Below are positions 9,411 through 32,290 of a stretch of 64,000 nt of DNA, one piece after another; position 1 is the stretch's first letter, and each line of letters starts with the position of its first letter. The notes beneath the pieces were generated by a model, which made no database searches, was not told the DNA's origin, and saw only the letters and a program-made list of their open reading frames with translations. The DNA comes from Candidatus Omnitrophota bacterium (lineage in GTDB: Bacteria; Omnitrophota; Gorgyraeia; Gygaellales; Profunditerraquicolaceae), in NCBI GenBank assembly GCA_041650835.1, contig JBAZKL010000004.1, positions 230,900-294,899 on the forward strand, read 5' to 3'. Position numbers and translations under genes: made by a program.

Positions 9411-9554
9411 TAAAGTTAAAAGTTTAAAGTTTAAATATCAAAGGAAGGTTAAAATTCAAAGGTTTAATTTTAAAATTTCCTACCTGCCGGTAGGCAGGGA
9501 CCTTAGACCTTTGATCTTCCTTTGTTATTTAGCCTTGAATCTTTATACTTTACT
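9411..9554. mobile_element. MITE-like AT-rich palindromic intergenic element, copy A, with a GC hairpin core.
   Basis: Terminal inverted repeats ...aaatatcaaaggaagg / ccttcctttgttattt... around the core cctacctgccggtaggcagg. About 80% identical to copy F. Confidence 0.7.
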
Positions 9555-9644
9555 ATAACTTGTTCCTGCGAAGCCGCACCGAGGTTTTACATTATTAACG
9601 GCGAAGCAGAACGATGCCAGACGTAGTCCGCTTTCTGAATACGA

Positions 9645-9908
9645 TTACAATTGTTTTAATAAAACTTTGTCGCCTTTTATCAATGCCAACTTCTTTTTTC
9701 TTGTCCAGCCTTTTATTTGTGCTTCGCGCTTTAATGCTGAAGGCTTGTCTAAGTATTGTTCATAAAATAGTATCTTTTCTACTCCAAATGATTTTGTAAA
9801 ATGACCGCCCCTGCCTGAGGCATGTTCTTTAAAGCGACGCTGAAGATCATCTGTAATGCCGGCATATAAATCGCTGTTCTTACATTTGAGGATATAAACA
9901 AACCATAT
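9645..9908 (-). CDS. GIY-YIG nuclease family protein (UPF0213/YhbQ-like). There is no canonical in-frame start; the best candidate is ATA with an upstream AAGGA.
   Basis: Minus-strand frame reads IWFVYILKCKNSDLYAGITDDLQRRFKEH...IKGWTRKKK. It is missed by the ORF track because it has no ATG/GTG/TTG start. Confidence 0.6.
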   Translation of the reverse strand: MWFVYILKCKNSDLYAGITDDLQRRFKEHASGRGGHFTKSFGVEKILFYEQYLDKPSALKREAQIKGWTRKKKLALIKGDKVLLKQL

Positions 9909-10022
9909 GGTGTCCTTCGACTCGTTCGTCGCTATCGCTCCTTACTCGCTCAGGATACTTCTCCTCCCTCGCCTTGCCTGGGCTTGTACTGAGCGACCGA
10001 GCGAAGCGAGGGAGTCGAAGTA

Positions 10023-10093
10023 CTGGGACGCATGGATTCGAACCATGATAGCGAGACCCAAATTCTCGTGTCCTACCATTGGACGACATCCCA
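10023..10093 (-). tRNA. tRNA-Gln (anticodon UUG).
   Basis: Cloverleaf folded by hand: acceptor TGGGATG/CGTCCCA, anticodon stem CGAGA/TCTCG with loop ATTTGGG, T-arm CATGG-TTCGAAT-CCATG, discriminator G. Confidence 0.75.
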
Positions 10094-10107
10094 AAATACA
10101 TTATAAT

Positions 10108-10521
10108 CTAAAGATCGGCATCTCCATACTCGCCGGGCTTACCGGTCTTTTTTTCGATTTCATACGCTTCCAGGACTTTCTTCTGTAAATATTCCCGGAA
10201 AACCTGTGTTATCGGATGAGCGACATCCTTATGCTCCGACTGCGCGAACGCGCCTGCCTCCGGGCCCACGGGACGGACTGATACGCTTAACTGCCCGCCG
10301 CACTGATTACAGAATTTTGAACGCGCTTCATTCTTAAATCCGCACTTCGGACAAGACTGTTTGATCTTACGCGAAGGCATAGCGATGAACAATTCGCTGG
10401 TACCCTGAATAACCTTGATATTCCTCACCACAAACGCGTCGTCAAAGGTAACCGTAGCGTATGCTTTCAGCTTTTTGTCGGGTGACTCTCGTAAGAAGAT
10501 TTTAACTTCAGTTATGTCCAT
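10108..10521 (-). CDS. spoVG: SpoVG-domain protein with a C-terminal zinc ribbon. The start is at MDITEVKIFL.
   Basis: SpoVG core (TVTFDDAFVVRNIKVIQGTSELFIAMPSRK) followed by CPKCG...CNQCGG. Confidence 0.75.
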   Translation of the reverse strand: MDITEVKIFLRESPDKKLKAYATVTFDDAFVVRNIKVIQGTSELFIAMPSRKIKQSCPKCGFKNEARSKFCNQCGGQLSVSVRPVGPEAGAFAQSEHKDVAHPITQVFREYLQKKVLEAYEIEKKTGKPGEYGDADL

Positions 10522-10542
10522 AGCAGCACCCCTTTCACAGAA

Positions 10543-10785
10543 AGTGAAACACCAACGCAATTCTGCCGCAGAAAGCGGCATACCGGCGCAATTCCAATCT
10601 GCGCCGGGTGCAAGCAGAAAGCCGCGTACCGGCGCAATACCGCCGCAACAAGCGGCGTACCCAGCCACACCTATTAGGCTGGGTGCGATCAGCGCCGGGT
10701 ACAGTCAGAAAGCCTGCCGTCAGGCAGGTTGCACACCCAGCCACGCCAATGAGGATAGGTGCCGATAAGCGCGGAGTGTTGTCAC
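10543..10785. repeat. Array of about five or six GC-rich REP-like palindromic units in the spoVG 5' leader, downstream of the ispE stop.
   Basis: Repeated gcagaaagcg ... cacc-N5-(aattccaat / aatacc / acacctatta loops)-N5'-gggtg units. One unit contains cctgccgtcaggcagg. Confidence 0.55.
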
Positions 10786-11715
10786 TTAAATCGTCCTTGT
10801 TACCGCCACAAATAAAGACTTATTTTCTTTCTTAAGCTGCCGGGAAAAAGACCGGGCTTCCTGTTGAGAAGGAACAAAAGCAAAAATCGACGGCCCGCTC
10901 CCAGACATTAAACTTGACCGCAACCCTAAGAAAACAAATCTTTTTTTCAGAAGTTTTACTTCAGGATAGACTTTTTCCGTAACAAGTTCCAAGCTGTTAA
11001 ACAAGGCTTTTTCGATCAAAGTAAGGTCTTTTTTCTTTAATATCGAACATAATATTGTAACATTTTGTTTAGGAATTGTCAACCTCAGAAGGCCTCCGGA
11101 ATACTCATCCCATTTCTTATAAATAAGCGGCGTGGAAACATGTAACGGCAATACGGCTAAAACATGCCACAGCCGGATAGCTTGAAGCGAATGTACGGGA
11201 CGGATCTTCTCTCCCCTGCCGCTTCCTAAAGCGAAAGGGGCGTCATATATAAAAAAAGGCACATCACTGCCGATCTTTTTGGCTAAAGAAACTAATTTAT
11301 TCCTCGTAAGCCCAAGGCCCCAAAGGCGATCCAGCCCTAAGAGAACTCCCGCAGCATCGCTTGAACCGCCGCCCATCCCGGCGCCTACAGGGATACGCTT
11401 GATGATCTTGATCCTTACCCCTTTATCGAGCTTCAAGCTCTCCTGCAACAATTGAGCGCTCTTATACGCGAGATTGGAGCTATCCTTAGGGACACCCGGA
11501 TGATCAGAAATGATCTCGATCTTTTTACCCGGCAAAGAAGATAACTTGAGCGTGTCATGCAGGTCAACGCGCTCAAAAAGAGTTTTTATCTCATGATAAC
11601 CATCGGCGCGCTTCTTAATAACCTCGAGGAACAGGTTGAGCTTAGCGTAACAACTGACTTCCACGCCTCGGGAACCAAGCAGTTTCAACGCTGAATGTAA
11701 TTGCCCCATGGACAT
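10786..11715 (-). CDS. ispE: 4-diphosphocytidyl-2-C-methyl-D-erythritol kinase.
   Basis: GHMP kinase motif PVGAGMGGGSSDAAG; N-terminal AKLNLFLEV. Confidence 0.85.
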   Translation of the reverse strand: MSMGQLHSALKLLGSRGVEVSCYAKLNLFLEVIKKRADGYHEIKTLFERVDLHDTLKLSSLPGKKIEIISDHPGVPKDSSNLAYKSAQLLQESLKLDKGVRIKIIKRIPVGAGMGGGSSDAAGVLLGLDRLWGLGLTRNKLVSLAKKIGSDVPFFIYDAPFALGSGRGEKIRPVHSLQAIRLWHVLAVLPLHVSTPLIYKKWDEYSGGLLRLTIPKQNVTILCSILKKKDLTLIEKALFNSLELVTEKVYPEVKLLKKRFVFLGLRSSLMSGSGPSIFAFVPSQQEARSFSRQLKKENKSLFVAVTRTI

Positions 11716-11724
11716 ATGATTATA

Positions 11725-12654
11725 TTAAGGAGAAACTATTCTTAAAACCGCTTTTTCTATATCGCCACTGGTAAGATTGTATTCTTTCATAAGTTCAGCC
11801 GGCTGGCCGGATTGGCCGAACCTGTTTCGTACTCCAACGCGGATAACTTTGGTAGGATGATTCTCAGCCACAACTTCGTCAACACTGGAAGCCAAGCCGC
11901 CGATAATGGTATGCTCTTCACAGATAACAATCCCTTTAGTCTGGCGGGCCGCGGCGAGGACCGTTTCGGTATCCAGGGGCCTGATAGTATGCATATTGAT
12001 CAAACGGGCGGAAATATTTTTCTTCTTCAGGCTCTCCACGGCAGCTAATGCCTCCTGCACCATGATCCCGCAGGCGATGATCGCGACATCGTTACCCTGG
12101 GTTAAAACTTGAGCCTTACCTAATTGGAATTTCCCTTTATTCTCAATAGTCACGACTTTCGGCCTTCCCAGGCGGACATAAAAGGGGCCTTTGGTATGAG
12201 CGGCGGCGATCACCGCTTCGCGCGTCTGAGGGCCGTCGCAAGGAGCCACGATAGTCATATTAGGGATCACGCGCATAAGCGCGATATCCTCCAACGCCTG
12301 ATGGCTGGCCCCGTCGGGTCCGACGCTCACGCCCGCGTGCGTCGCGACGATATTAATATTAAAATTATTATAGGCGACACTGTTCCTGATCTGGTCCCAT
12401 GCCCTGCCGGTAGCGAATATCGCGAAGGTTGAAGCAAAAACGATCTTCCCGCAGCTTGCCAGGCCGCTGGCAACAGCCATCATATTCTGTTCAGCAACCC
12501 CCATATTGAAAAAACGCTCCGGGTATTCTTTGGCAAATAAACCGGTACGCGTGGAACTGGATAGATCAGAATCGAGGACAATAATATCCTTATTCTCTTT
12601 ACCCAACTCGATGAGTGTCTGGCCGTAAACGTCTCTTTGGTATAATTGTTCCAT
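11725..12654 (-). CDS. Transketolase, C-terminal subunit of a split enzyme.
   Basis: Pyrimidine-binding and C-terminal transketolase domains (FNMGVAEQNMM...). Confidence 0.85.
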   Translation of the reverse strand: MEQLYQRDVYGQTLIELGKENKDIIVLDSDLSSSTRTGLFAKEYPERFFNMGVAEQNMMAVASGLASCGKIVFASTFAIFATGRAWDQIRNSVAYNNFNINIVATHAGVSVGPDGASHQALEDIALMRVIPNMTIVAPCDGPQTREAVIAAAHTKGPFYVRLGRPKVVTIENKGKFQLGKAQVLTQGNDVAIIACGIMVQEALAAVESLKKKNISARLINMHTIRPLDTETVLAAARQTKGIVICEEHTIIGGLASSVDEVVAENHPTKVIRVGVRNRFGQSGQPAELMKEYNLTSGDIEKAVLRIVSP

Positions 12655-12655
12655 T

Positions 12656-13477
12656 TTACTCTAACTCTCTCAACGCCTGCTCGGTTTCTTCTTTGGTAGG
12701 AGTGCGGCCGTGGAAATCAACCACATGCTCCATAAAAGAAACCCCCTTGCCTTTAATCGTATGGGCAATGATAATGGACGGCTTTCCTTTGACCGACCGC
12801 GCTTCATCATATGCCTCTAAAACCTGTTTCATATCATGGCCGTTTATTTCAACGGTATGCCATCCGAATGCCTGCCATTTCGCGATTATCGGCTCAAGAT
12901 TCATAACGTCTTTTGTTTTACCGTCGATTTGATACCCGTTATAGTCCAGGATGCCGCAGATATTATCGCAGCGATAGTGAGCCGCAGCCATAGCCGCTTC
13001 CCAAATATTGCCTTCCTGTATTTCTCCATCCCCCATTAAACAATACACCCGGTAACCTTTCTTATCGATCTTTGCCGCAAGGCTCATGCCGACCGCGATG
13101 GACAACCCCTGCCCGAGCGAACCGGAGGCGACATTGATCCCGGGGGTGCGCCGGTCAGGATGCCCCTGCAGTAAAGAACCGAATTGCCGCAAGGTCATAA
13201 GTTTTTCAAGAGGGAAATACCCGGACTCAGCTAAAACAGCATACAACAAAGGACAGCAATGCCCTTTCGACAAATGGAAACGGTCGTTCTCCGCGCTTAA
13301 AGGGTTTTTAGGGTCATGGCGCATTACCGCGAAATATAACGCGGTGATCAAATCAGCCGCCGAAAGGCTCCCTCCCGGATGGCCGGAACCCGCTTTAGCA
13401 AGCATGGTAATGATCAATTTACGGATATGCTTGGCTTTGACTTCTAATTCTTTAACCTTCGTATCGGAATAAGACAT
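12656..13477 (-). CDS. Transketolase, N-terminal thiamine-diphosphate-binding subunit.
   Basis: GSGHPGGSLS...GDGE...N TPP-binding motifs. Confidence 0.85.
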   Translation of the reverse strand: MSYSDTKVKELEVKAKHIRKLIITMLAKAGSGHPGGSLSAADLITALYFAVMRHDPKNPLSAENDRFHLSKGHCCPLLYAVLAESGYFPLEKLMTLRQFGSLLQGHPDRRTPGINVASGSLGQGLSIAVGMSLAAKIDKKGYRVYCLMGDGEIQEGNIWEAAMAAAHYRCDNICGILDYNGYQIDGKTKDVMNLEPIIAKWQAFGWHTVEINGHDMKQVLEAYDEARSVKGKPSIIIAHTIKGKGVSFMEHVVDFHGRTPTKEETEQALRELE

Positions 13478-13512
13478 CTCAATAATTATCTAAAACCGGG
13501 CTCTCGCTTATA

Positions 13513-14520
13513 TTATCGCACTACCGGCGCGGCCCCGTTTTTAGTTACTTCCTGATTTAATCTATCCAATTTCTGCTTAACCTGGTCCTGCTTTGAATCT
13601 ATGATCAACGATCTTTCCCAGCTTGCTATAGCGTTCGGGCGGTCGTTAAGCTTTAAATACGCGTCACCTAAATGGTCGAAAATAACATGGTCATCCAATA
13701 ACGCGCTGGCCTTTTTTAATTCCTGAACAGCGTCGCTGAATTTACCTTGTTTAAAATAAAGCCAGCCCAAACTATCGATATACGCTCCATTTTCAGGCTC
13801 AAGGGACAATGCCTTCCTTATCAAGCTTTCAGCGGTATCAAAATCCTTGTTTTCTTCAACATAAAGATACCCGAGATAATTCAACGCTTCGGCATAATCG
13901 GGGCGTAATTCGATCGCTTTTTTGAGCTCCACTATGGTCTGGTCCCGGTTTTTCAGCTCATCATAAACATTCGCCAGATAAAAATGGGCTTCGCTGTCGG
14001 AAGGCGACAGGTCAAGGATCAAGCGATACGTATTCTCAGCGTCTTTGAATTTCTTCTGACGCAGATAAACGATCCCTAAACTTTTATAAACATCGATATT
14101 CTGAGGTTCGACCTTGGAGGCATTCTGAAGCGCAAGCTCATATTCCGTGGTAGCCAGGTCAGGCTTGCCTTGAGAAAAATAAAGAAGCGCCAAAACCGCA
14201 TGCGGCTCTATGGCTTCCGCGTCATATTTAACGGCAAGGTTTAATTCAAGCGTAGCCCGGGGAGCATCATTCTGCCTTAAGTAACAAAGCGCCAGGTTCA
14301 GGTGGATCAAAGCATTCCTGGGGTCTAATTCCAAGGCTTTTTTATACTCGGTGACCGCTTCTTCGGTATCGCCTGACTGTTCATGCATAGAAGCCATGAT
14401 ATAATGCGTCAGGGTCAGCGATAAGCGTTTATCTAACGCGAGAACGCTTGTCGAAGCGCACAGCGTTAGTGAAAGGCAACACAAAATTAAAGAAACCCGT
14501 CTTTTTAGCTTAGGAAGCAT
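13513..14520 (-). CDS. Secreted tetratricopeptide-repeat protein.
   Basis: Signal peptide followed by about eight TPR-like repeats (AxxxYxxALxLDP pattern). Confidence 0.7.
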   Translation of the reverse strand: MLPKLKRRVSLILCCLSLTLCASTSVLALDKRLSLTLTHYIMASMHEQSGDTEEAVTEYKKALELDPRNALIHLNLALCYLRQNDAPRATLELNLAVKYDAEAIEPHAVLALLYFSQGKPDLATTEYELALQNASKVEPQNIDVYKSLGIVYLRQKKFKDAENTYRLILDLSPSDSEAHFYLANVYDELKNRDQTIVELKKAIELRPDYAEALNYLGYLYVEENKDFDTAESLIRKALSLEPENGAYIDSLGWLYFKQGKFSDAVQELKKASALLDDHVIFDHLGDAYLKLNDRPNAIASWERSLIIDSKQDQVKQKLDRLNQEVTKNGAAPVVR

Positions 14521-14699
14521 ATCGAGAACACTTCACCGGCACACCAGTGACAGCGTATCGCAGCAATATCTCAATGAATTTACATGATCCCTCCAGGTAA
14601 AAACCCGGATCTTTGAGGGACATTTATCTTATCGAGAACAAGCTGATAAGGCAAAGTACTGCCTTATCAGCTTGAACACAGGCTTTTTCGACCTACGAA

Positions 14700-14801
14700 T
14701 TAGCTCCAGTTTCTCTTCTTCAAATGACGCAACTTTCGACGCATCTTTTTTCTTTTATGCGTCTTGATCTTCTGTCTTTTTCTTTTCTTACCGCACGGCA
14801 T
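14700..14801 (-). CDS. Unannotated 33-aa Lys/Arg-rich small protein, MPCGKKRKRQKIKTHKRKKMRRKLRHLKKRNWS, with a candidate resemblance to ribosomal protein bS22.
   Basis: Strong GGAGGA Shine-Dalgarno 4 nt before the ATG. Its composition and the KKR-KR...HKRK pattern resemble mycobacterial bS22. It falls below the ORF-track length cutoff. Confidence 0.4.
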   Translation of the reverse strand: MPCGKKRKRQKIKTHKRKKMRRKLRHLKKRNWS

Positions 14802-14825
14802 TACTTCCTCCTCGATAAAACGATC

Positions 14826-15924: not shown

Positions 15925-17340
15925 ATGTTTAAAATGCTCCGAGACAAAAAAACCCAGAAAACTATCTGGATCGTTTTAGCGGTCATTATCGTACCGGCAT
16001 TCATTTTTTGGGGCTCCAGCAGCATAATCAAAGAGCCGGGAGAAGTAAATAATTTCTCCCTCAAGATCTTCGGCAAACGTATTTCTTACTCGGATTACCA
16101 GGACTCACTCGCGGCGGTCCGTAATCAGGCACTCATCCAATTCGGGGACAGCTTTGAGCAAATGCAGAAATTCCTGAACCTGGAAAGCCAGGCGGTCCAA
16201 CGGCTGGTTCTCGTCGCGGAAGCGCGCAAGCGTAAGATCAAGGTCAGCGACAAAGAAGTCGTCGATTTTATCCAGGCATTCGCGCCTTTCCAAAATAAAG
16301 GCCAGTTCGACAATAGGGCATACGCGTATATATTGCAATATGTATTCCGCACCCAGCCCCGGCTATTTGAAGAACAAACCAGGCAGAACCTGATGATAGC
16401 GAAGCTTTATGAAACCATTACCAAGGACGCCTCCGTTACCGAGCAGGAGGTCAAAGACGCTTACGCAAAAGAAAACGAGCAGATCAGCGTAAGTTATATT
16501 GCCAGCCTGTACGCGGACTCAAGCAAGGACGCCGTTACCAGCGATGAAGAACTTAAAGATTACTTTACTAAAAATTCCCTTTCTTTTAAACAACCCCTGT
16601 CGTTTAACGCCGTCTACCTCGCCCTGGATAACGAAACCCAGCAAAACAGCATTACCCCGCTGATCGCGAAAGAAAAAGACCTTGAAAAAGCGGCAAAAGA
16701 ATTAAACCTGAGCGTCAAAGAAACCGGGTTATTCAGCCAGGTTGACCCTGTCCCGGGGATCGGCTGGAGCCCGCAGATCTCCGCGATCATCTCAAAGCTT
16801 GACGTCGGGCAGATCTCAAGCGTCATCCCTTTTGACAAGAAATTCTACGTATTCCAGCTCAAAGAGCGTCGTGACCCTTATATACCCGATTTTGAAGCTA
16901 TAAAAGAAAAGGTAAAAGACGCCGTGGCCAGGAACAAGGCAAAGGATATCGCGAAAAGAAAAGCCGACAGCTGCTTTAAAATACTCCAGGATGCCGCGAA
17001 GATCGGCCTTAAAACGATCAATTTCGAGGCAATCGCCAAAGACGCGGGGCTTAAAACAGGGACAACCGCCCCTTTTAAATTCGGCAGCTATATCGAGAAT
17101 ATCGGCGCCTCCGACGAATTCTTTACCGCGGCACGCTCTTTAAAAGATGACGAGTTCAGCGCGGTGATCGACTCCCCTTCCGGCTACTTCATCATTAAGA
17201 CAAAATCGAGGGTGCCGGTTGATGAAGCGAAGTTTAAGGCGGAAAAAGAGGAATTCACGCAAAAGCTTTTATCCGAAAAGAAGCAGAACGAATTCTCAAA
17301 ATTCGCCGAAGAATTAATGAAGAAAATACAGGCAGGCTAA
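15925..17340 (+). CDS. ppiD: PpiD/SurA-like periplasmic chaperone (N-terminal transmembrane anchor, SurA-N-like and parvulin-like regions).
   Basis: An N-terminal TM helix followed by a long periplasmic domain with PpiD-like architecture. It is the only confident plus-strand gene in the window. Confidence 0.65.
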   Translation: MFKMLRDKKTQKTIWIVLAVIIVPAFIFWGSSSIIKEPGEVNNFSLKIFGKRISYSDYQDSLAAVRNQALIQFGDSFEQMQKFLNLESQAVQRLVLVAEARKRKIKVSDKEVVDFIQAFAPFQNKGQFDNRAYAYILQYVFRTQPRLFEEQTRQNLMIAKLYETITKDASVTEQEVKDAYAKENEQISVSYIASLYADSSKDAVTSDEELKDYFTKNSLSFKQPLSFNAVYLALDNETQQNSITPLIAKEKDLEKAAKELNLSVKETGLFSQVDPVPGIGWSPQISAIISKLDVGQISSVIPFDKKFYVFQLKERRDPYIPDFEAIKEKVKDAVARNKAKDIAKRKADSCFKILQDAAKIGLKTINFEAIAKDAGLKTGTTAPFKFGSYIENIGASDEFFTAARSLKDDEFSAVIDSPSGYFIIKTKSRVPVDEAKFKAEKEEFTQKLLSEKKQNEFSKFAEELMKKIQAG

Positions 17341-17378
17341 ACCGTAAGAAAAAAACGGGCACGCCGCTTTCGTTAAAA

Positions 17379-17435: not shown

Positions 17436-17439
17436 CGTA

Positions 17440-21192: not shown

Positions 21193-21657
21193 CTATAACC
21201 GCTCTTTTTTAAGGTCGCCTTTCGGGCCTATTTCGGTAACTTCTTCGATCTTTACCTTAAATATCACGAACTTTTCAGGTATCCCTATCTCAAAATTCTC
21301 GTGTTTATGCCCCCGGTAAAGCCCTTCAATGATCCGTTTAGCCGAAAGGCTGATTATCCTTTCGCCTAACTCATGGACGATCTTTTCATGTTGAGGCCCC
21401 TTTTCAATGATCTCAACCGGGCCGTTAACCTGAAAGCCGCTTAAAGAATTAGTATCCACGAAAGAAAGCGACATTTTAGGATTGATCTTAAGGTTTTCCC
21501 AGGTCTTACTCAAGGTATAATCGATCAAATATATGAAATTATTCTCAACTTTTAAAAGGAACTTAGGCGCGGCATTAGGAGTGCCTTTAAAATCACAGGT
21601 CGCCACACTGATAAACTCGCGCTTTTCCAGGAATTCAGTTATTTTCTTGGTGATCAT
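21193..21657 (-). CDS. Pyridoxamine 5'-phosphate oxidase-like FMN-binding protein.
   Basis: PPOX class general-stress-protein fold (FISVATCDFKGTPNAAP). Confidence 0.65.
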   Translation of the reverse strand: MITKKITEFLEKREFISVATCDFKGTPNAAPKFLLKVENNFIYLIDYTLSKTWENLKINPKMSLSFVDTNSLSGFQVNGPVEIIEKGPQHEKIVHELGERIISLSAKRIIEGLYRGHKHENFEIGIPEKFVIFKVKIEEVTEIGPKGDLKKERL

Positions 21658-21704
21658 GGTTTTTCTTCGAATAATAAATAATCTAAAAAGATCAGGATGA
21701 CGGA

Positions 21705-21848
21705 AAAGTTTAAAGGATTAAGACCAAATAACAAAGGAAATTCAAAGGATAAAGGTCCCTGCCTGCCGGCAGGTAGGAAATTTTAAAATTTAACCTTGAA
21801 ACTTAAACCTTCCTTTGTTCTTTAACCTTTAGTCTTTATCATTAACTA
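21705..21848. mobile_element. MITE-like element, copy B, inverted relative to copies A, E and F. Core is ccctgcctgccggcaggtagg.
   Basis: Same terminal inverted repeats (aaataacaaaggaa / ttcctttgttcttta) with the core in reverse-complement orientation. Confidence 0.7.
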
Positions 21849-21888
21849 ACTATTTTTATTTCCAGGCATCCTGAGATCTTATCTTTAA

Positions 21889-22275
21889 CTAAATATCCTT
21901 TATCACGATATCCCTGAACACATTGCCGAAAGCAGCTTCGAAATCGTAAACATCCTTAAAATCGTCGATGGAATCAGTCTCTGTCTTAGCGAGCATCTTA
22001 TTCTCGATCATAGTATAAACGATATTCCCGAAATCCTGGGTCCTGGTCACCCCCCAATGAGAAAACAATGTTTTTGCCATCGGGCCGTATTGTTCAACAA
22101 CGAATTTACGGATCCCTTCGGAAAGCTCTCCCCCGGTAACATGACTGGTTTTCTTAAGGGATTTCTGGGTATAATACAAGGCCTGCATGACAAATTCATA
22201 GGCGTCAGGCTTATAGCGTTTATCTTTTTCGCAAATCTCTTCTATTAACTTATAGAAATCCTTTTTTTCTTCCAT
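21889..22275 (-). CDS. Hypothetical protein.
   Basis: 128-aa ORF with reasonable coding character and no confident family assignment. Confidence 0.55.
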   Translation of the reverse strand: MEEKKDFYKLIEEICEKDKRYKPDAYEFVMQALYYTQKSLKKTSHVTGGELSEGIRKFVVEQYGPMAKTLFSHWGVTRTQDFGNIVYTMIENKMLAKTETDSIDDFKDVYDFEAAFGNVFRDIVIKDI

Positions 22276-24416: not shown

Positions 24417-24525
24417 ATAAGTAAAAAGTAAGCTTTATTTATATAATCTTACCATGAATTAAGGCTGTATTCAAGGAGTCTTGATTGATAGCTGACTCAT
24501 AAAACCGGATACACTAAGGTAATTC

Positions 24526-24648
24526 TAAAGTATAAAGTATAAAGAACAAAGGAAGATTAAAGGTTAAAGGTTAAAGGTTAAATTTTAGAATTTAGTCTTT
24601 ATTCTTTGAATTTCCTTTGTTATTTAATCTTTATCCTTTAAACTTTCC
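24526..24648. mobile_element. MITE-like element, copy C; a short variant lacking the GC hairpin core.
   Basis: Shares the ...aagaacaaaggaagattaaaggttaaa / ttctttgaatttcctttgttatttaatcttta termini with the other copies. Confidence 0.6.
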
Positions 24649-24682
24649 CGGTAGCTTTTAACGATCCGTAAGGATCGCCTGG

Positions 24683-25441: not shown

Positions 25442-25444
25442 CGC

Positions 25445-25681
25445 TTATACGCAAACCCGGATAACCTTATCCCTGATATTATGGCCGCTAAGGATCTCAA
25501 GCTGATATTTCTTTACGTTCAGGAACTCAGCCAAGAGCTCGACCAACTGCCGGTTCGCCAATCCCCCCTGGGCCGGCTTGGTTAAATAAACTTTTATATA
25601 ATCATTTTCTTTTTTTACCAAATTCCTGCTTGCTTTGGGGATGACACGGACCTTGATAGTCGAAGGAATTGAGATACTCAT
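25445..25681 (-). CDS. DUF167 (YggU) family protein.
   Basis: 78 aa; the position adjacent to yfiH is conserved in many bacteria. Confidence 0.7.
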   Translation of the reverse strand: MSISIPSTIKVRVIPKASRNLVKKENDYIKVYLTKPAQGGLANRQLVELLAEFLNVKKYQLEILSGHNIRDKVIRVCV

Positions 25682-25697
25682 AGGAAAGATACAATAA

Positions 25698-25842
25698 GTT
25701 AATTTTAAAGGCTAAAGTTTAAATAACAAAGGAAGATTAAAGGCCTAAGGTTCCTGCCTACCGGCAGGTAGGAAATTTTAAAATTAAATCTTTATTCTTT
25801 GAATTTCCTTTGTTCTTTAACCTTTAATCTTTAGACTTATCC
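25698..25842. mobile_element. MITE-like element, copy D, in the same orientation as copy B. Core is cctgcctaccggcaggtagg.
   Basis: This core is the exact reverse complement of the copy A and F core. Confidence 0.7.
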
Positions 25843-25851
25843 GTCTTCCAA

Positions 25852-26160
25852 TTATTTCTTCTTTGCCGCAACCCGGTACGCGTCATAAATACTATAAATA
25901 CCGACCACGCAGATCAAAGATAACCCAACGATACAAAGGCTGGCGCCGAGGATCAAGAGTGCCGTCCCTTTAAGCTTGCCCAATAACCACAACCCGGTAA
26001 GCAGGCTTCCGGTAAAGAAAAAGAACATATTGACCGCTGAAATAAAAATAATAAAAAGCCCCTTACCGATCTGGCCGTTATAGATCTGTCCCAAACCGTT
26101 AAAAACAAAAGAAAATACTGCCGCCAGCCCGGGATGAGACGAATTATTTTCCTGCGTCAT
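25852..26160 (-). CDS. Small integral membrane protein.
   Basis: Three predicted TM helices with a GLGQIYNGQ motif. Confidence 0.5.
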   Translation of the reverse strand: MTQENNSSHPGLAAVFSFVFNGLGQIYNGQIGKGLFIIFISAVNMFFFFTGSLLTGLWLLGKLKGTALLILGASLCIVGLSLICVVGIYSIYDAYRVAAKKK

Positions 26161-27139
26161 TTAAGCCCTCCTGCGTTTGCGATTCTATTTGCGGCCTCTG
26201 AGCAGTCGAAGCCAGTTTTTCGGTAAACTTCCCCAACTTCACCTTCGCGTCATTATATTTCGTGGCAGCATTAGAGAGATGGCTTCCCACGAGGTCGAAA
26301 TCGCCCTGGAATTTCTTAAAATCGATCTGGATACTCCCTAATTCAGCCAGTATCTTCTGGATATTGCGCTGGATATTGACACCCCGCAGCCCGTGCAGGA
26401 TAGCCTGCAAATAAGCGTAGAAAGTGTTCGGGGAGACAAAAACCACCTTCCGGGCCTGAGCATAAGCGCATAATTCTTCATCCTGGTTGATCTGGTAATA
26501 AACAGCCTCGGCCGGTATATACATAAGCGCGAAATCAAACGTGGATTCTCCGGGTAAAATATACTTGGAAGCGACCTCTTCGATCCGCTTCTTTACATCC
26601 CGCACGAAAACCCGGTACACCGATTTCTTCTCATCTTCAGAAGGGCTTTCAGAAAACTTCTTAAAATTTTCCAAAGGGAATTTAGCGTCGATAGAGATCA
26701 GGTTTTGCCCGATAACTATCACCGCGTCGGCAATATCGCCGCTTTTAAAGCGGTATTGCAGCTTGATGTTTTCCTTAGGCAGGATATCTTCCAAAAGCCT
26801 CCCCAGCAGCGTCTCGCCGAGCTCACCCCTGAATTTCGGGGCGCGCAGGAGCTCCTGGAGGCTGGCGATATCCTTACTGATCTCATATATCTGCTTATGG
26901 GTCTCCTCCAACCTTCCCAGGCTTTTCTGAACATCGCCGAAAACGCGCGTGGCGGAATCGAGCCGCTCTCCCACCGTCTTATGCGCCTCTTGCAAGGCTT
27001 GAGAAGTCTCTTTAAGGCGTTCATTGACCTGCTGGGTGACCGAATTCAATTGCTGATTCACCTGCCCGGCGATCTTCATAACCAAAGCTATGATCGCCCC
27101 CTTCCCCGCCGCAACGATCACAATGACCAGCCACATCAT
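26144..27139 (-). CDS. rmuC: DNA recombination protein RmuC.
   Basis: N-terminal TM helix, coiled coil and RmuC C-terminal domain. Confidence 0.8.
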   Translation of the reverse strand: MMWLVIVIVAAGKGAIIALVMKIAGQVNQQLNSVTQQVNERLKETSQALQEAHKTVGERLDSATRVFGDVQKSLGRLEETHKQIYEISKDIASLQELLRAPKFRGELGETLLGRLLEDILPKENIKLQYRFKSGDIADAVIVIGQNLISIDAKFPLENFKKFSESPSEDEKKSVYRVFVRDVKKRIEEVASKYILPGESTFDFALMYIPAEAVYYQINQDEELCAYAQARKVVFVSPNTFYAYLQAILHGLRGVNIQRNIQKILAELGSIQIDFKKFQGDFDLVGSHLSNAATKYNDAKVKLGKFTEKLASTAQRPQIESQTQEGLNDAGK

Positions 27140-27160
27140 AATCTAAGCCCTCTACGATTA

Positions 27161-27300
27161 ATGTTAAAGGTTAAAGACTAAATATCAAAGGAATGTTTAA
27201 GTCTAAAGGTTAAATTTTAAAATTACCTGCCTGCCGGTAGGCAGGAATCTTTAAACTTTAAATTTCCTTTATTATTTAATCTTTGATCTTTATACTTTAT
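27161..27300. mobile_element. MITE-like element, copy E. Core is acctgcctgccggtaggcagg.
   Basis: Same family; termini aaatatcaaaggaatg / atttcctttattattta. Confidence 0.7.
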
Positions 27301-27319
27301 TTATTATATCACTCTTTTG

Positions 27320-28039
27320 CTAAAGCAAATAATCCTCTTTTATCCTTTTGACACTGCGAAAGATATTCGTTTTCACATCAGGGCAGATCTTTCTCAAATC
27401 TTCAATAAGGGCGCCCATTTTGGCCCGGTTAGAAGTTACAGAACGAGGGCATACACAGGTTTCATGAGGGATCTTCTCTTCTTTGGCAAAGCGTTTGATC
27501 ATCTTTTCCTCTACATACGCAAGAGGACGGATAAGCGTGACCTTGCCGCCGAAAAGCTTTTGTTTGGCAGCCATGGCGGAAATTTCACCCTGAAAGAACA
27601 GGTTCAATAAAATAGTCTCAATAATATCGTCTTTATGATGCCCCAGGGCGACTTTCGTGCAGCCAAAACGCCCGGCCACTTCAAAGAGCGCTTTGCGCCG
27701 GTTCCAGGAACACCAAAAACAATTGATATCTTTCCGCTTGGTCTTCCTTAAAACATCGACCTTCTCAATATGGTAGGGGATCTTTTCTTTTTTAAATAAC
27801 CGCTCCAATTTCTTGGCGCAGGAGCGCGGGTAGCCCATATCGACATGCACCGCCAGGACCTCATATTTGACCGGCACAAATTTCCTGCGGTCGTTTAAAA
27901 CACGCAGCAATGCCAAGCTATCCTTGCCGCCGGAGACCGCCACGGCGATCTTATCGCCTGCGGTGAGCATTTTATAATCCATGATCGCCCTGCCGACCCG
28001 CTTTGAAATATAGTATTCGGTTCCCTGGAGTACTGCCAT
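27320..28039 (-). CDS. ttcA: tRNA 2-thiocytidine(32) synthetase TtcA (PP-loop ATPase).
   Basis: SGGKDS PP-loop and CxxC pairs. Confidence 0.8.
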   Translation of the reverse strand: MAVLQGTEYYISKRVGRAIMDYKMLTAGDKIAVAVSGGKDSLALLRVLNDRRKFVPVKYEVLAVHVDMGYPRSCAKKLERLFKKEKIPYHIEKVDVLRKTKRKDINCFWCSWNRRKALFEVAGRFGCTKVALGHHKDDIIETILLNLFFQGEISAMAAKQKLFGGKVTLIRPLAYVEEKMIKRFAKEEKIPHETCVCPRSVTSNRAKMGALIEDLRKICPDVKTNIFRSVKRIKEDYLL

Positions 28040-28077
28040 ATACCGCCTCGTTTGATATAAAGCTTAAAAAATGCGGA

Positions 28078-28218
28078 AAAGTTTAAAGATTAAATTTTAA
28101 ATAACAAAGGAAACTCAAAGAATAAAGGTTAAATTTTAAAATTTCCTACCTGCCGGTAGGCAGGAACCTTAAGCCTTTAATCTTCCTTTGTTATTTAGAC
28201 TTTAAACTTTATCATTAA
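28078..28218. mobile_element. MITE-like element, copy F. Core is cctacctgccggtaggcagg.
   Basis: Closest relative of copy A. Confidence 0.7.
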
Positions 28219-28301
28219 CCGTAGTTAATTATGAGCTTTTGTTATATATTAATACGCAATTACACGTTTTCTTCTAGATTATCATTCTTTTATTATTAAG
28301 G

Positions 28302-29120
28302 TTAATACCGGGGAATAAGGAAAATATGGCCGATGATAGCGTCCGCCCAAAACATCGACAAGATCGCTGCCAGGGCTAAAAACGGACCGTAGGGAATGGT
28401 ATGATCTTTTTTGACCAGGAGGTTTAAGACGCCGATCACGGCGCCAAAGAAAGGAGCAAGGAAAAATGTTATCACCGCTTTTTCCCAGCCGAGAAAAGCC
28501 CCGATCATTGCCAGGAGTTTGACGTCACCGCCGCCCATGGATTCTGTTTCTCCCTGGATAGGGCCCTTCTTGAGTAATTTAAAATAAACCAGGTCGAAGA
28601 GGACCCCGGTCAAATAGATGATACCCCCTCCTATGATTATTCCGAGGAAGGACTGCAGGGCAGGATTGAAATCATAGCGTAACGGCTCCAGATGCACCCC
28701 GCGCGCGGCATTAATAAGGAACCCGACAACCAGGCCGCCCACGGATATCTCATCGGGAATGATCCTATGCTGGATATCCACGAATGTCGCGACGATCAAT
28801 CCCGCCACAAAAATAATATAGTAAACCGATTTAAAGCTGAAGCCGTAAAGGTTATAAAACCATAAAAAGCACAAGCCCGTCAAAAGCTCAACGATCCAAT
28901 ACCGCGGCGAGATACTTTTGCGGCAAAACCGGCATTTCCCCCCCAAAATAAGATAACTTATCAAGGGGACATTATCAAACCAGGCAATAGGCTTTTTACA
29001 ATTCGGGCAGAATGATCCCGGAACAACGACCGATTGCTCAAGCGGCATCCGGTAAATGCAGACATTCAAGAAACTTCCGACGATAGCCCCAAAAAGAAAG
29101 GTAAAAACCTGTTCGATCAT
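28302..29120 (-). CDS. pilD: Type IV prepilin leader peptidase / N-methyltransferase (A24 family).
   Basis: CPNC...CRFC zinc knuckle, polytopic membrane protein with conserved Asp residues. Confidence 0.8.
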   Translation of the reverse strand: MIEQVFTFLFGAIVGSFLNVCIYRMPLEQSVVVPGSFCPNCKKPIAWFDNVPLISYLILGGKCRFCRKSISPRYWIVELLTGLCFLWFYNLYGFSFKSVYYIIFVAGLIVATFVDIQHRIIPDEISVGGLVVGFLINAARGVHLEPLRYDFNPALQSFLGIIIGGGIIYLTGVLFDLVYFKLLKKGPIQGETESMGGGDVKLLAMIGAFLGWEKAVITFFLAPFFGAVIGVLNLLVKKDHTIPYGPFLALAAILSMFWADAIIGHIFLIPRY

Positions 29121-29965
29121 TTATGTTTTGCCATTTCATCAACCAAGGCTTTACGCATTACTTCAACCGATGGCTGCCTTCCCGTCCAATATTCAAATGA
29201 TTTCATCCCCTGGTACAAAAGCATGCCTAAGCCGTTGGAATATTTACAGCCTTTAGCCCGTGCTAACTGCAACAATTTTGTCTGTTGCGGATTATAGATC
29301 AAATCGTAGACGAAAGTAGACGCAGATAATTTATTTACATTCACTAATACCGGATCGAGCTCGTTCATGCCTATGGGGCTGGAATTGATCAACAGGTCGG
29401 GAACAACCTCAAGCAGGCTGTCAATGGAATCAACGGCTTCGACATTAGCAACTTCGAAATTCTCGGTGACCTTATCCACAATACTCTCCGCTTTCTCTTT
29501 TTGAATATCATAAATCAATATCTTTCCCGCCCCCTCTGCCGCTAACGACTGTACCACGGCGCGCGCGGCACCGCCTGCGCCTATTACCGAAACGGTCTGG
29601 TTATAAAGGCTTTTGACATACACATCCATCAAGTGCTGCAGGAAACCGAGCGCGTCGGTATTATGCCCCATGGTCCTGCCGTCACAGATCTTAACCGTAT
29701 TGACCGCGCCGATGACCCTTGCTTCTTCAGTCAATTGGTCCACATAATTAACCATTGTTTCCTTATAGGGGATCGTGACATTAAAACCACGGATATTTTC
29801 TTTAGCGCTCGACTGTAAGAACGAGCCTAACAATTCAGGCTGGACCTCAAAAAGCTTGTATTTAGCATTAATACGCAGCGCCTGAAAAGCCGCGTTATGC
29901 ATCGCAGGTGAAACGCTGTGTTTTACCGGATACCCTACTAAACCGTATATTTCAGGAGCACTCAT
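29117..29965 (-). CDS. aroE: Shikimate dehydrogenase.
   Basis: AroE N-terminal substrate domain and GAGGAARA NADP-binding motif. Confidence 0.85.
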   Translation of the reverse strand: MSAPEIYGLVGYPVKHSVSPAMHNAAFQALRINAKYKLFEVQPELLGSFLQSSAKENIRGFNVTIPYKETMVNYVDQLTEEARVIGAVNTVKICDGRTMGHNTDALGFLQHLMDVYVKSLYNQTVSVIGAGGAARAVVQSLAAEGAGKILIYDIQKEKAESIVDKVTENFEVANVEAVDSIDSLLEVVPDLLINSSPIGMNELDPVLVNVNKLSASTFVYDLIYNPQQTKLLQLARAKGCKYSNGLGMLLYQGMKSFEYWTGRQPSVEVMRKALVDEMAKHK

Positions 29966-31467
29966 AACATCTCCGTTTTGTTGATCGCGTCCACATACGC
30001 GCGGATCGCCGCTTCAATAATATCGGTACTGGAACCTCTCCCCGGGACAGTTTTAACTTTTGCCTTCAAGGTAAGGCTCACGTGCCCTAAAGCGTCTTTA
30101 CCGGAAGTCACCGCTTCTAAACGAAAATCTTCCAGTTTAAAAGTATTCCGCGTGATCTTATCCACTGCCTTGAAACAGGCGTCAACCGGCCCATCCCCGA
30201 TAGAGACGCCGCTTTGCAGCTTACCCTTCTTATTTAAAGTCACCGTTGCTTCAGGAGTGACCTTGGTCCCGGAATTGACCATGAAGCTCTCCAGCTGCCA
30301 TAAGGGTTTAACTACCCGTATCTGGTCCTCCACAATGGTCCGCAGGTCATCGTCATAAATATCCTTCTTTTTGTCGGCGACTTCTTTAAAGCGCTCAAAA
30401 GACTTATTTAATTCATCCTCGCTTAAATGGAACCCCAGCCTGCCCAGGCGCTCGCTAAACGCGTGGCGGCCGGAATGTTTTCCCAGCACCAGCCCTTCAC
30501 CGTAGAAGCCGACATCTTCCGGCTTAATGATCTCATAGGTTGAACGTTCTTTTAAAACACCATCCTGATGTATGCCTGACTCGTGCCTGAAGGCGTTGCC
30601 TCCGACAATAGCCTTATTAGGGGCAATAACAAACCCTGTCAGCTTACTGACCAGGCGCGAGGTATGGTAAAGGTGTTTTTTATTAATGTTCGTCCCCAGG
30701 TTCTTATAAATGTCTTTACGCGTATCCAAAGACATAATGATCTCTTCAAGCGCGGCATTCCCCGCCCGCTCGCCGATACCGTTGACCGTGCATTCCACCT
30801 GGCGGGCGCCGTTCTTTATCGCTGCCAAAGAATTCGCGACCCCCAGCCCCAGGTCATTGTGGCAATGGACGGAAATTACCGCTTTCCGGATATTCGGGAC
30901 ATTCTCCCTGATCGCCTTGATCAAAGCGCCATACTCTTGCGGTTCAGTATAACCGACCGTATCCGGGATATTAACCGTATTTGCCCCCGCCTTAATGACC
31001 GCTTCCAGCACCCTGAACAAAAACTCAAGCTCCGTGCGTGAAGCATCTTCGGGAGAGAATTCAACATCGGGGCAATATTTCTTCGCGTAACTCACCGACT
31101 CTACCGCCAGCCGAAGGATCTCATCTTCAGCTTTTTTAAGCTTATACTTCATGTGTATCTTGGAAGTAGCCAGGAAGACATGGATACGCGAACGCCGGGC
31201 GGCACGGGTCGCAAGATACGCCGCGTCGATATCTTTTTTTATCGACCTGCTTAAGCCGCAGATGACCGGACCTTTAACCAAGCGTGCGATCAAGCGGACA
31301 GCATCAAAATCGCCTTTCGAGGAAATAGGGAACCCCGCCTCAATAATATCAACACCGAGGCGCGCGAGCGCCTGAGCGACTTCCAATTTCTCTTTTTGGT
31401 TCAGGCTTGCCCCGGGCGCCTGTTCCCCGTCACGAAGTGTTGTGTCGAAAATCAAGACCTTTTCCAT
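29962..31467 (-). CDS. leuA: 2-isopropylmalate synthase (LeuA/CimA family, with C-terminal regulatory domain).
   Basis: DTTLRDGEQ...HCHND TIM-barrel motifs and a LeuA dimerisation/regulatory C-terminus. Confidence 0.85.
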
Positions 31468-31468
31468 T

Positions 31469-32098
31469 CTACCTCAAATTAAAAGTTTTAACCGAAGACT
31501 CGAACAACCTTGCGTTTTTATTGAAAGTTTCCGCTTTGTCCGCGCAGGATATCGTAAAGCTGATGTTATTCTTAAAAAAGATATATACTAAATACTTCAG
31601 TTTAATTTCCAAAGTCCCCATGCTTACCGCCGATTCATACGTAAACGTCACACCTTCGCTCTTATTTATCGTGACTTTTTTGGGCTTTTTGATCACTTTC
31701 ATGCTGGTGCCCATCGCGTTTATGGTATTCAAATATTTCCTTGCATAATCCAGCTTTGATTCCGAGCTTAAAGCACTGATTAATTCCGCGACTACCGTGA
31801 TACTCGGATTCGATTTATTCTTTGTGTCCAGCGGATACGCGGAGAATACAGTTAAAATGCCCAGCCGCTGAGCGGACTGGTCGGGCGTTTTCGTAACGTC
31901 GTCGATAGTCTTGGTAACCATCCCCTGGAAAACCTCTCCCGGGGTTTGAAGCCATCCATCAGGAGAAATAAAGGTGAGCCCCATGGTTTTATTATCGTAA
32001 ACGGCTGATGCCGCCCGGGCAGGGCATAAAAACATTGCCCCCGAGAGAGTTAAAACAATCATCATTGCCGACGACAACAAAACTTTCTTAAGAAACAT
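31469..32098 (-). CDS. Hypothetical secreted protein; the ORF abuts the leuA start.
   Basis: Signal peptide (LSGAMFLCPARA); no family recognised. Confidence 0.5.
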   Translation of the reverse strand: MFLKKVLLSSAMMIVLTLSGAMFLCPARAASAVYDNKTMGLTFISPDGWLQTPGEVFQGMVTKTIDDVTKTPDQSAQRLGILTVFSAYPLDTKNKSNPSITVVAELISALSSESKLDYARKYLNTINAMGTSMKVIKKPKKVTINKSEGVTFTYESAVSMGTLEIKLKYLVYIFFKNNISFTISCADKAETFNKNARLFESSVKTFNLR

Positions 32099-32173
32099 AG
32101 GTTTCCTTTTTACTTTACTCCTGAATTAACCACTTACCCATGCCACCATTAACAAATACTTATATACCGTTAA

Positions 32174-32290
32174 TGATAAAGGCTAAAGACTAAATAACAA
32201 AAGAAGGTTAAAGTCTCAAGTCTAAATTTTAAAGTTTAACCTTTATTCTTTGAATTTCCTTTGTTATTTAAACTTTAATTTTTAGACTTT
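32174..32290. mobile_element. MITE-like element, copy G; a short variant lacking the GC core.
   Basis: Shares ...aaataacaaaagaaggttaaag / ttctttgaatttcctttgttatttaaacttta termini with copy C. Confidence 0.6.

Follow-up and report, generated by a model that had tools for sequence, protein, structure and literature searches.

The stretch of DNA analyzed here, called the window, comprises 64 kb of contig JBAZKL010000004.1 (GenBank assembly GCA_041650835.1, positions 230,900 to 294,899) from a member of Candidatus Omnitrophota, an uncultured phylum. The best homologues of its TtcA and GlmU carry NCBI annotations of Candidatus Omnitrophota/Omnitrophica. Between positions 9406 and 32299, the window harbors seven copies of an AT-rich, palindromic, non-coding element of 136–155 bp. 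By coordinates, all seven copies are intergenic and lie between minus-strand genes, within co-directional gene strings. The flanking genes are glmU-like, PNPOx-like, cutA, yfiH-like, DUF167, rmuC, ttcA, prepilin peptidase, and ilvC. An earlier reading made from the letters of the window alone, here called the sequence-only reading, had assigned the copies to a family resembling MITEs (miniature transposable elements with inverted repeats). We find that copies have been added to short spacers in one lineage and are missing from its relatives, and we consider it probable, short of confident, that the family is a mobile repeat.

The family is well defined. A repeat search joins the seven copies as direct and inverted repeats of 117–166 nt with 75–93% identity, and their MAFFT alignment has a mean column identity of 77%. 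An nhmmer model built from this alignment, used throughout as the family profile, matches exactly seven places in the window and none besides (E 1e-46 to 5e-30). Because the copies are palindromic, each is also scored on the opposite strand. Open reading frame (ORF) lists show no gene inside any copy, and the GC content of the copies is 25–33%, versus 47% for the window. Pairwise identity among window copies is 74–90%; copies from different subfamilies are just 74–79% alike. The alignment bears out the division, proposed by the sequence-only reading, into five copies with a GC core and two without (24517 and 32164), and strand assignment together with comparison of arm and core orientation places the copies in both orientations, as that reading had it. 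The copies align as one family and, since further members exist in other genomes, they are not peculiar to this locus.

Copy 1 (9406–9559, plus strand, core 9479–9498; nhmmer E 6e-44) lies 28 nt upstream of the start codon of the glmU-like gene and is followed by a hairpin repeat at 9562–9613 and a GIY-YIG ORF. Copy 2 (21696–21848, minus strand; E 1e-46), with core CCTGCCTGCCGGCAGGTAGG at 21758–21777, lies in the spacer that separates a 128-aa ORF from the PNPOx-like gene. Copy 3 (24517–24655; E 8e-31) is a short, unoriented form that lacks the core and occupies the spacer between the yfiH-like gene and cutA. Copy 4 (25692–25846, minus strand) nearly fills the 170-bp spacer at 25682–25851, between a 102-aa ORF (stop at 25852) and a DUF167/YggU ORF (start at 25681). 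Copy 5 (27153–27300, plus strand), with core CCTGCCTGCCGGTAGGCAGG at 27226–27245, separates ttcA from rmuC. Copy 6 (28071–28224, plus strand, core 28145–28164) lies between the prepilin peptidase gene and ttcA; as RNA it folds at -48 kcal/mol (z -6.4). Copy 7 (32164–32299), again a short, unoriented form without the core, lies between ilvC (KARI) and a 209-aa ORF.

Heptamer arrays and a 20-nt core

Every copy is an imperfect palindrome from end to end, with an arm complementarity of 62–81%. The body, 116–135 bp in length, consists of two inverted arrays, each of about nine degenerate heptamers (AAAGNNT). The order within an arm is fixed: five AAAGNNT heptamers ending in the invariant AAATAAC-AAAGGAA, a 4-nt spacer, and four more heptamers. 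The invariant block within the heptamer array is AAATAAC-AAAGGAAG. The sequence-only reading had described a taaag/ttaaa periodicity. The actual period is 7 nt rather than 5, with a lag-7 self-identity of 0.56 versus 0.30 ± 0.04 in shuffles. Likewise, the motifs that it had named as terminal inverted repeats, aaataacaaaggaag and cttcctttgttattt, prove to be subterminal: dyad symmetry extends approximately 22 nt beyond them to ACGG-type ends. The element ends come in three variants, and many copies in other genomes possess an additional outer palindromic layer, TTAGGTTAGGAAACTTGGGTTATTTAACG. Around copy 2, approximately 40 nt per side of the insert (21650–21700 and 21850–21890) fall outside the family consensus and pair as an inverted repeat of their own, AGATC-AGGATG / CATCCT-GAGATCT, suggesting another nested layer.

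The apex of the core-free copies is a perfect palindrome, TAAAGGTTAAATTTT|AAAATTTAACCTTTA. The other five copies hold exactly 20 extra nt, located 7 bases to one side of the dyad center, that read CCTACCTGCCGGTAGGCAGG or a one-base variant of it. This 20-nt core contains two overlapping 6-bp hairpins, and its general form is CCT(A/G)CCTGCCGG(T/C)AGGCAGG. The cores of the copies at 21705 and 25698 had been described as exact reverse complements of the others. This description is correct for copy 4, whose core at 25753–25772 is the exact reverse complement of the copy 6 core, and is off by one base for copy 2 (21758–21777); the core at 27226–27245 also differs by one base. Copies 4 and 6 are 88–90% identical, with arms and core in the same relative orientation, and in the subfamily to which they belong, arms and core flip together (86–90% identity in the same orientation versus approximately 70% when flipped). 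These are whole-unit inversions. Copy 2, by comparison, matches L048, a family member outside the window, better flipped (80%) than unflipped (69%), which hints at an independent insertion of the core.

Filled and empty spacers in Omnitrophota relatives

The window can be compared with a 646-kb contig of an Omnitrophota congener (loci L150 and L155), which is collinear with window positions 18–38686 at 82–88% nucleotide identity (approximately 84% in all). The congener possesses no family member, and all seven orthologous sites are empty. L155 shows the absence of copy 1. L150 covers the other six sites, and the alignment breaks at every one of them. Specifically, the copy 2 site (21705) has a spacer of 231 bp in the window and 1 nt in L150, and the copy 4 site (25698) has a spacer of about 170 bp in the window and 7 bp in L150, so that these two insertions separate genes that practically abut in the congener. 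The spacers at the copy 6 site (28078) are 262 bp versus 58 bp, those at the copy 7 site (32174) are 388 bp versus 46 bp, and the unaligned segments at the copy 3 site (24526) are 198 bp versus 47 bp. The ttcA–rmuC spacer (copy 5, site 27161) is 180 bp in the window, 60 bp in L150, and 44, 77, and 46 bp in the more distant relatives L153, L209, and L210, in which this site is also empty. Those relatives (L153/L154, L209, and L210; TtcA 80–82% identical) show no copy, no core-like hairpin, and almost no heptamer arrays. Thus, the window and its relatives display insertion-type presence/absence polymorphism at all seven sites, and the copies have been added, in either orientation, to short spacers between co-transcribed housekeeping genes while leaving those genes undisrupted.

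In a closer relative (L151/L152; 94% nucleotide identity), contig L151 stops 4–9 nt into the position orthologous to copy 6. At the ttcA–rmuC site, this relative carries a different heptamer-hairpin element (L151 762–953, and also in L152), with GTCGATA/GTCAATA heptamers arranged around CGTGCCTGTCCGGCAGGCAGGCACG. Therefore, the same spacer is occupied by two different elements in sister lineages. The window matches short-read contigs of run SRR8542065 at 100%, and those contigs end inside the copies, as repeats would lead one to expect.

We also looked for the family elsewhere. A pattern requiring conserved arms was scanned over one genome per species, and its matches were judged with the nhmmer profile. 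Of 52 matches in the genome collection, 47 are chance occurrences by profile, and true members exist solely in the metagenome-assembled genome (MAG) CAZPNW01, labeled "uncultured Planctomycetales," which has six copies on five contigs. Among the metagenome matches listed, contigs of the CAZPNW01 organism appear again, together with a third genome, Ga0265297_10001953 (L136), with one full and one half copy. The loci in both genomes align to the window only at the repeats, and the genes flanking their copies are ordinary ones, encoding ABC-F, NuoB-like, RadA, SMC, GGDEF, and other proteins. A homologous multi-copy palindromic family is thus carried by three genomes that have no alignable sequence except the repeats, and four relatives lack it.

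Two subfamilies can be drawn. One comprises 25692, 28071, L048, L136, and L029 (85–90% alike), and the other comprises 21696, 24517, 32164, L004a, and L009 (82–86% alike); copy 7 and the MAG copy L004a are 86% identical. Host proteins compared between the window and L153 (TtcA, RmuC, LUD-domain, and YfiH-like) share 52–82% amino-acid identity. In these comparisons, the subfamilies cut across genomes and are far better conserved than host proteins. Copies also cluster locally: seven lie in 23 kb of the 64-kb window (estimated p about 0.01), two share a 0.8-kb stretch of L004, and two share a 2-kb stretch of L136. In viral contigs, the arms pattern gives six matches, all chance by nhmmer, and BLAST of one copy against GenBank phages and PLSDB plasmids returns no match.

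Elements of similar layout came to light in these scans. In Lake Tanganyika metagenomes, L083 (4375–4500) and L086 (10119–10244) share an element with five AAATGTC-type heptamers ending in AAAGGAA, a 4-nt spacer, and more heptamers; it matches the family profile weakly (E 3e-4). A Treponema population in metagenome Ga0268262 carries, at thirteen loci (L058, L068, L073, L081, L084, L085, L106, L112, L123, L124, L126, L135, and L141, with which L002 was grouped), a many-copy palindrome with AAATAAC/AGGTAAC heptamer arms and an inner block AACAAAGGAAG...CTTCCTTTGTT. Its center is a GC-rich, asymmetric segment of approximately 55 nt found in both orientations, and its architecture is like that of the window family. 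RadA of one of these loci has its best matches in Treponema sp. Homology to this family, on the strength of the shared AACAAAGGAAG...CTTCCTTTGTTATTT and heptamer arms, was not accepted because the search pattern itself selected that similarity.

A probable mobile repeat and its rivals

What are these copies? The account that we favor, and hold to be probable, is that of a lineage-restricted, non-autonomous, non-coding palindromic repeat family that behaves in the manner of REPIN, MITE, or ERIC elements and has a modular, nested build. The notion is that the element would be copied in trans by an enzyme encoded elsewhere, one that would recognize the folded strand or structure, or else the phased AAAG motif, rather than discrete terminal inverted repeats. 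Insertion would proceed without target duplication and would favor short AT-rich or structured spacers and loops. A single-stranded fold-back reaction of the HUH/RAYT kind, or a comparable reaction targeting hairpins or loops at replication forks, is the most plausible route, although less likely than not. Once inserted, the copies would be neutral or mildly structural passengers in mRNA.

Known systems offer partial parallels. In common with the RAYT-mobilized REP/REPIN elements of Pseudomonas and E. coli (PMC3116915), the window family is extragenic and non-coding, forms long hairpins, shows no target-site duplication, clusters locally, has families conserved across related genomes, and, we infer, is mobilized in trans. 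Unlike REPINs, its arms are AT-rich degenerate heptamer arrays rather than two GC-rich REPs of 20–35 nt, no conserved GTAG-type 5′ tetranucleotide was identified, and the sequence examined contains no RAYT gene.

With the Correia elements of Neisseria, ERIC/IRU of enterobacteria, and Chunjie of Geobacter, as generally described, the family shares a size of 100–160 bp, inverted symmetry, the occurrence of long and short variants, insertions that fall between co-transcribed genes and leave them unbroken, and presence or absence between relatives. MITEs of the Correia, ERIC, and Chunjie type have defined terminal inverted repeats and a target-site duplication (TA for Correia), whereas the window family shows no such duplication on testing and no clearly sharp termini, and its length variants differ by a portable 20-nt module.

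There is also a likeness in build to repeats of Nostoc. In 2008, Elhai and colleagues reportedly described heptamer repeats (STRR) in that genus, together with small dispersed repeats (SDR1–8) nested in the heptamer arrays. Those repeats resemble the window family in having tandem heptamer arrays in intergenic hairpins and a small element of approximately 20–27 nt, a hairpin with compensatory changes, that sits inside heptamer arrays as well as other repeats, facing either way, with no obvious transposase. They differ in that ours come from Omnitrophota and uncultured phage contigs, not Cyanobacteria, and in that the heptamer-armed body is itself a conserved multi-copy unit; the two are likened by description, not by sequence.

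Intergenic direct repeats of the heptamer TAACTGA are also found in Beggiatoaceae, Cyanobacteria, and Bacteroidetes (PMC4679880). Heptanucleotide repeats are, according to the summary of Mrazek 2007 given there, the commonest long simple repeats in prokaryotes. The TAACTGA repeats share with our family the 7-nt period, an intergenic position near start codons, a patchy distribution, and a mechanism left open. They are, however, perfect direct repeats of one heptamer, unlike the degenerate heptamers in two inverted arrays of fixed order seen here; because of that fixed order, the window copies constitute a defined homologous family.

The kind of element is known, namely the bacterial interspersed palindrome, and what is new is the heptamer-array build with a portable 20-nt palindrome. 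Our literature search turned up no description of the repeat content of Candidatus Omnitrophota. The interest of the case is that one lineage has filled tight operon spacers with layered, nested palindromes while its congeners kept spacers of 0–77 bp. This contrast provides a clean natural experiment for asking how streamlined genomes come to be invaded by non-coding DNA and whether operons tolerate 150-nt hairpins between coupled genes. It also reproduces, outside Cyanobacteria, the pattern of very small mobile elements in heptamer arrays. As a practical matter, the repeats break short-read assemblies of such genomes.

Several observations weigh against mobility. No transposase, RAYT, or integrase occurs among the scanned window ORFs (Pfam) or beside the copies in six related loci, five from MAG CAZPNW01 and one the Ga0265297 contig (L136), so the mobilizing enzyme was found neither in the 64 kb nor next to copies elsewhere. 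The element ends are fuzzy. With identities of 74–90%, the copies carry no sign of current activity. Exact-protein look-ups for closer strains gave only fragments from the same sample, and hence no strain-level (recent) insertion polymorphism. The family amounts to at least 15 copies in three genomes, found with a search pattern that demanded conserved arms. The "empty" L150 spacer at the 27161 site begins with ACGTTTAATTTTAAGG, which resembles one of the element end types. Therefore, some empty sites could be deletions that left remnants: judging from the sequence, either the element favors insertion at such a sequence or the spacer may itself be a remnant. Finally, strong conservation between genomes could equally reflect selection for a host function.

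A host function is the first rival to consider. Under this reading, the copies are cis-acting RNA or DNA structures, namely intercistronic hairpins such as terminators, attenuators, RNase III sites, or mRNA stabilizers, that are maintained by selection and spread by recombination or gene conversion. Because the copies are palindromic, folding each as RNA gives a single long hairpin (-24 to -48 kcal/mol; z -2.2 to -7.4). All reside in co-directional gene strings and would be transcribed, they cluster locally, and the subfamilies are 85–90% conserved between genomes with far more diverged proteins. Their variation, however, is not compensatory. RNAalifold on 14 copies yields a covariation term of +0.11 kcal/mol, and only the invariant AAAG/CUUU teeth pair. 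When the full dyad is imposed, 75.3% of cells are paired versus 78.9% with partners shuffled between copies, and the observed value is reached in 500 of 500 shuffles. Mismatches recur systematically at the variable spacer positions, at several of them in 10–13 of the 14 copies. Thus, with no covariation and the AAAG/CTTT teeth alone pairing, what is conserved is a phased sequence motif and not base pairing.

Nor is there a consistent geometry for the terminator or promoter function suggested by the sequence-only reading. One of the seven copies passes a terminator scan (hairpin 27245–27226), two copies are without a GC stem, and the copies do not all face the same way relative to transcription. 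Promoter-like matches in the 20–33 kb interval number 30 versus 21.1 ± 4.7 expected, which is not a significant enrichment. Some element ends create an outward TTGTTA-N16-TATCAT match, which faces the downstream gene in three or four copies only. At Rfam gathering thresholds, only tRNAs pass in the window, and for two copies searched at E<=1, the best sub-threshold match scores 19 bits against a gathering score of 211. In addition, four relatives keep the same operons with spacers of 0–77 bp and no element. Because those relatives run the same operons without it, the element is dispensable. We regard a selected host structure as unlikely.

The next rival is the classical MITE, that is, a deletion derivative of an insertion sequence (IS) with a DDE transposase, moved in trans by cut-and-paste through its terminal inverted repeats and duplicating a short target such as TA. 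The parts of this reading that endure are the dispersed, non-coding inverted-repeat family of suitable size, its intergenic copies in both orientations, and its presence or absence at orthologous sites. The long and short forms, moreover, recall the internal-deletion variants commonly ascribed to Correia elements. Target duplication, sharp termini, and a transposase are the parts that find no support. The sequence-only reading had named TA or short AT direct repeats at the ends as candidates to look for. None is visible by eye. In 12 copies, boundaries were measured from fixed internal anchors and every pair of them was scanned, with a null in which each left flank is paired with the right flank of another copy. 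The best common boundary gives a 3-nt match in 7 of 12 copies, inside the heptamer arrays, versus a null mean of 6.8 and maximum of 8; no boundary, at any length, exceeds the null.

The ends are no more helpful to the classical MITE: the termini look ill defined, with three end types and extra outer layers, and conservation sits in subterminal, periodic blocks. What separates the long from the short form is an exact 20-nt module also found elsewhere, not an internal deletion. As for the enzyme, the sequence-only reading had reported that the window shows no transposase. The same result comes from Pfam scans, which covered those major ORFs of the window (>=150 aa) that lie outside the syntenic block as well as the ORFs on either side of each copy, and from the gene tables of syntenic relatives. 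There is no Y1_Tnp match among the scanned window ORFs or the neighbors of related copies, and neither the window nor the six related copy-bearing loci contain an IS whose ends match. The GIY-YIG ORF next to copy 1 was considered as a partner and set aside: it is uncorrelated with the family because the copy-free congener has the same ORF. The suggestion of active or recent movement is doubtful because the window copies are just 74–90% identical. Taken as a whole, a classical MITE is unlikely.

A third rival holds that the copies are arrays of binding sites for a host protein, such as a nucleoid, partition, or translational factor, that reads AAAG every 7 nt on DNA or RNA, with the element serving as its landing pad. 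Conservation does indeed center on the AAAG/CTTT teeth, which keep their phase, and the spacers are free to vary and stay unpaired. Moreover, a role as binding sites for regulators has been proposed for the intergenic heptamer direct repeats of Beggiatoaceae, Cyanobacteria, and Bacteroidetes (PMC4679880). Yet no candidate protein was identified, and close relatives lack the arrays entirely. Heptamer excess has, in addition, been attributed to polymerase slippage (Mrazek 2007, to the extent summarized in PMC4679880). Furthermore, other palindromes in the window use the unrelated heptamers AGACACN and ATAGTCC, and therefore a structural or mutational origin of the 7-nt period is favored over one binding specificity. 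The chance that protein binding accounts for the family is slim.

Integron-like attC sites, such as the Vibrio cholerae repeats that separate gene cassettes, bear a superficial likeness to the copies (imperfect palindromes of approximately 120–150 bp, 75–90% alike, between same-strand genes), but synteny, orientation, and spacing refute an attC array, to which we give a negligible chance: what the copies separate are conserved housekeeping genes whose order is unchanged in relatives that have no such repeats, the copies lie in both orientations, and the window has no RYYYAAC/GTTRRRY core sites and no integrase. A CRISPR-like array was rejected on the same three grounds.

A portable 20-nt palindrome and neighboring repeats

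The core is the oddest part of the family and the lead that most deserves to be followed. The hairpin pattern CCTGNCNNNNGNCAGG has 8 matches in the window versus 0.02 expected. Five lie inside the AT-rich family. The others are ACTGCCTGCCGGTAGGCAGG (2644–2663, plus strand), in a GC-rich REP-like repeat in the dnaB–bamA spacer; the variant CCTGCCGTCAGGCAGG (10713–10728, plus strand), in a GC-rich nested-hairpin repeat array upstream of spoVG; and the variant CCTGACTGCCGTCAGGCAGG (43199–43218, plus strand), which has compensatory stem changes and lies in a different heptamer element composed of TGTGTCT arrays (43163–43316). The last variant is also present in 4 viral loci. In MAG CAZPNW01, the core exists in at least four kinds of context; it is absent from the congener (L150/L155). 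The stem, CCTxyC/Gy'x'AGG, varies by compensatory pairs (AC/GT, GA/TC, and GC/GC), as in CCTACC/GGTAGG, CCTGAC/GTCAGG, and CCTGCC/GGCAGG.

Exact 20-nt pairs of sequences with and without the core are found in three settings: the AT-rich family, a GC-rich repeat, and a phage tRNA-Met. For the GC-rich repeat, the form with the core reads CAGAAAG[CCTACCTGCCGGTAGGCAGG]CCGCGCACCGGCGC in L004, and the form without it, at window position 10622, reads CAGAAAG|CCGCGTACCGGCGC. In the phage tRNA-Met (L188 2239–2330), the 20-mer sits in the variable loop with AGG on one side and TC on the other, and the gene is nevertheless called by ARAGORN as a 92-nt tRNA-Met. Two related phages, L212 (12794–12829) and L213 (6831–6866), which are 77–78% identical to it over 1.7–2 kb, have the tRNA without interruption at the corresponding position, upstream of the portal gene. 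The difference between copies with and without the core is thus not a simple deletion: the core is a separate 20-nt module that exists in unrelated contexts. Two further viral loci show the 20-mer in or near tRNA-like sequence. In L160 (8616–8635), a phage tRNA-Met bears the 20-mer and a 13-nt deletion of the T arm. In L199 (515–534), the 20-mer lies between GGTAGCTCAGTTGGTA and GAGC, resembling the D-loop of a tRNA or tRNA fragment, and ARAGORN calls none there.

The exact 20-mer occurs at 47 viral-contig loci with GC contents of 33–70%, and a single contig sometimes contains three or four of them. The counts for two control palindromes of matched composition are 0 and 0, and that for the compensatory variant is 4. 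The flanks of the viral 20-mers exhibit no codon periodicity and a modest 7-nt excess: a strong lag-7 signal exists in 2.5% of flanks versus 0.08% of random windows, and several viral 20-mers lie between heptamer arrays. The 20-mer-bearing viral contigs share no non-structural gene; portal, capsid, and tail proteins alone recur. Collections of cultured phages and of plasmids contain no full-length match, and a literature search for the sequence found nothing relevant. Some viral contigs hold the 20-mer inside larger local repeats, with three to six 20-mers each in L184, L193, and L195 (one 29.5-kb viral contig), L165, and L182–L183; examples of such repeats are CCCGTAG[core]GGGCGGCACAATCTAGCCCAGGGCGGAAGCCCTGGG and CCCCTCTCC..GGGAGAGGG[core]G.TGGGGGTGAGG.

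We tentatively propose, as an idea plausible enough to pursue, that the palindrome (CCTG)2CCGG(CAGG)2 and its compensatory variants are themselves a mobile unit, among the smallest known, that spreads among uncultured bacteria and phages. Under this proposal, an exact 20-nt block would be inserted where structured DNA or RNA is unpaired, with no target duplicated, the observed spots being near the apex of the heptamer palindrome, between the hairpins of the GC-rich repeat, and in the variable loop of the phage tRNA-Met. An enzyme would drive the spread, and the 140-bp family would be either one carrier or a larger product of the same hairpin-targeting machinery. The exact 20-mer, CCTRCCTGCCGGYAGGCAGG, provides a sharp search key, and phylogenetic profiling that sets its presence against gene families could point to the enzyme responsible.

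The neighborhood contains other repeats. Two additional heptamer-armed palindromes, both unoriented, lie in the window. One, at 35487–35569 in the ilvN/ilvB spacer, is composed of four AGACACN heptamers, CAG..CTG, and GTGTCNN, and is absent from L150, where the spacer is 25 bp. The other, at 44574–44662 in the spacer between the SAH hydrolase and SAM synthetase genes, has four ATAGTCC heptamers followed by three ATGGRCC heptamers.

The GC-rich nested-hairpin family exists in the window at 2570–2700, 4150–4210, and 10540–10770, in L004 at 3007–3090 and 5698–5798, and in L150 at 16988–17068. Its units resemble CACCGGCGCAATTCCAATTAGCGCCGGGTG and are linked by CAGAAAG; about five of them lie upstream of spoVG. 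Rfam gives no match for this family, which is 85–95% identical across the window, the MAG, and even the congener, where the AT-rich family is lacking. The hairpin repeat TTCCTGCGAAGCC...GGCGAAGCAGAA exists as one copy abutting copy 1 in the window (9562–9613) and as four tandem copies in the congener (L155 9380–9700). It lies between tRNA-Gln and the GIY-YIG ORF (9648–9899, minus strand; PF01541, E 1e-16). Finally, a 9-mer array, AACGATAGT, is located at window positions of about 5430–5480.

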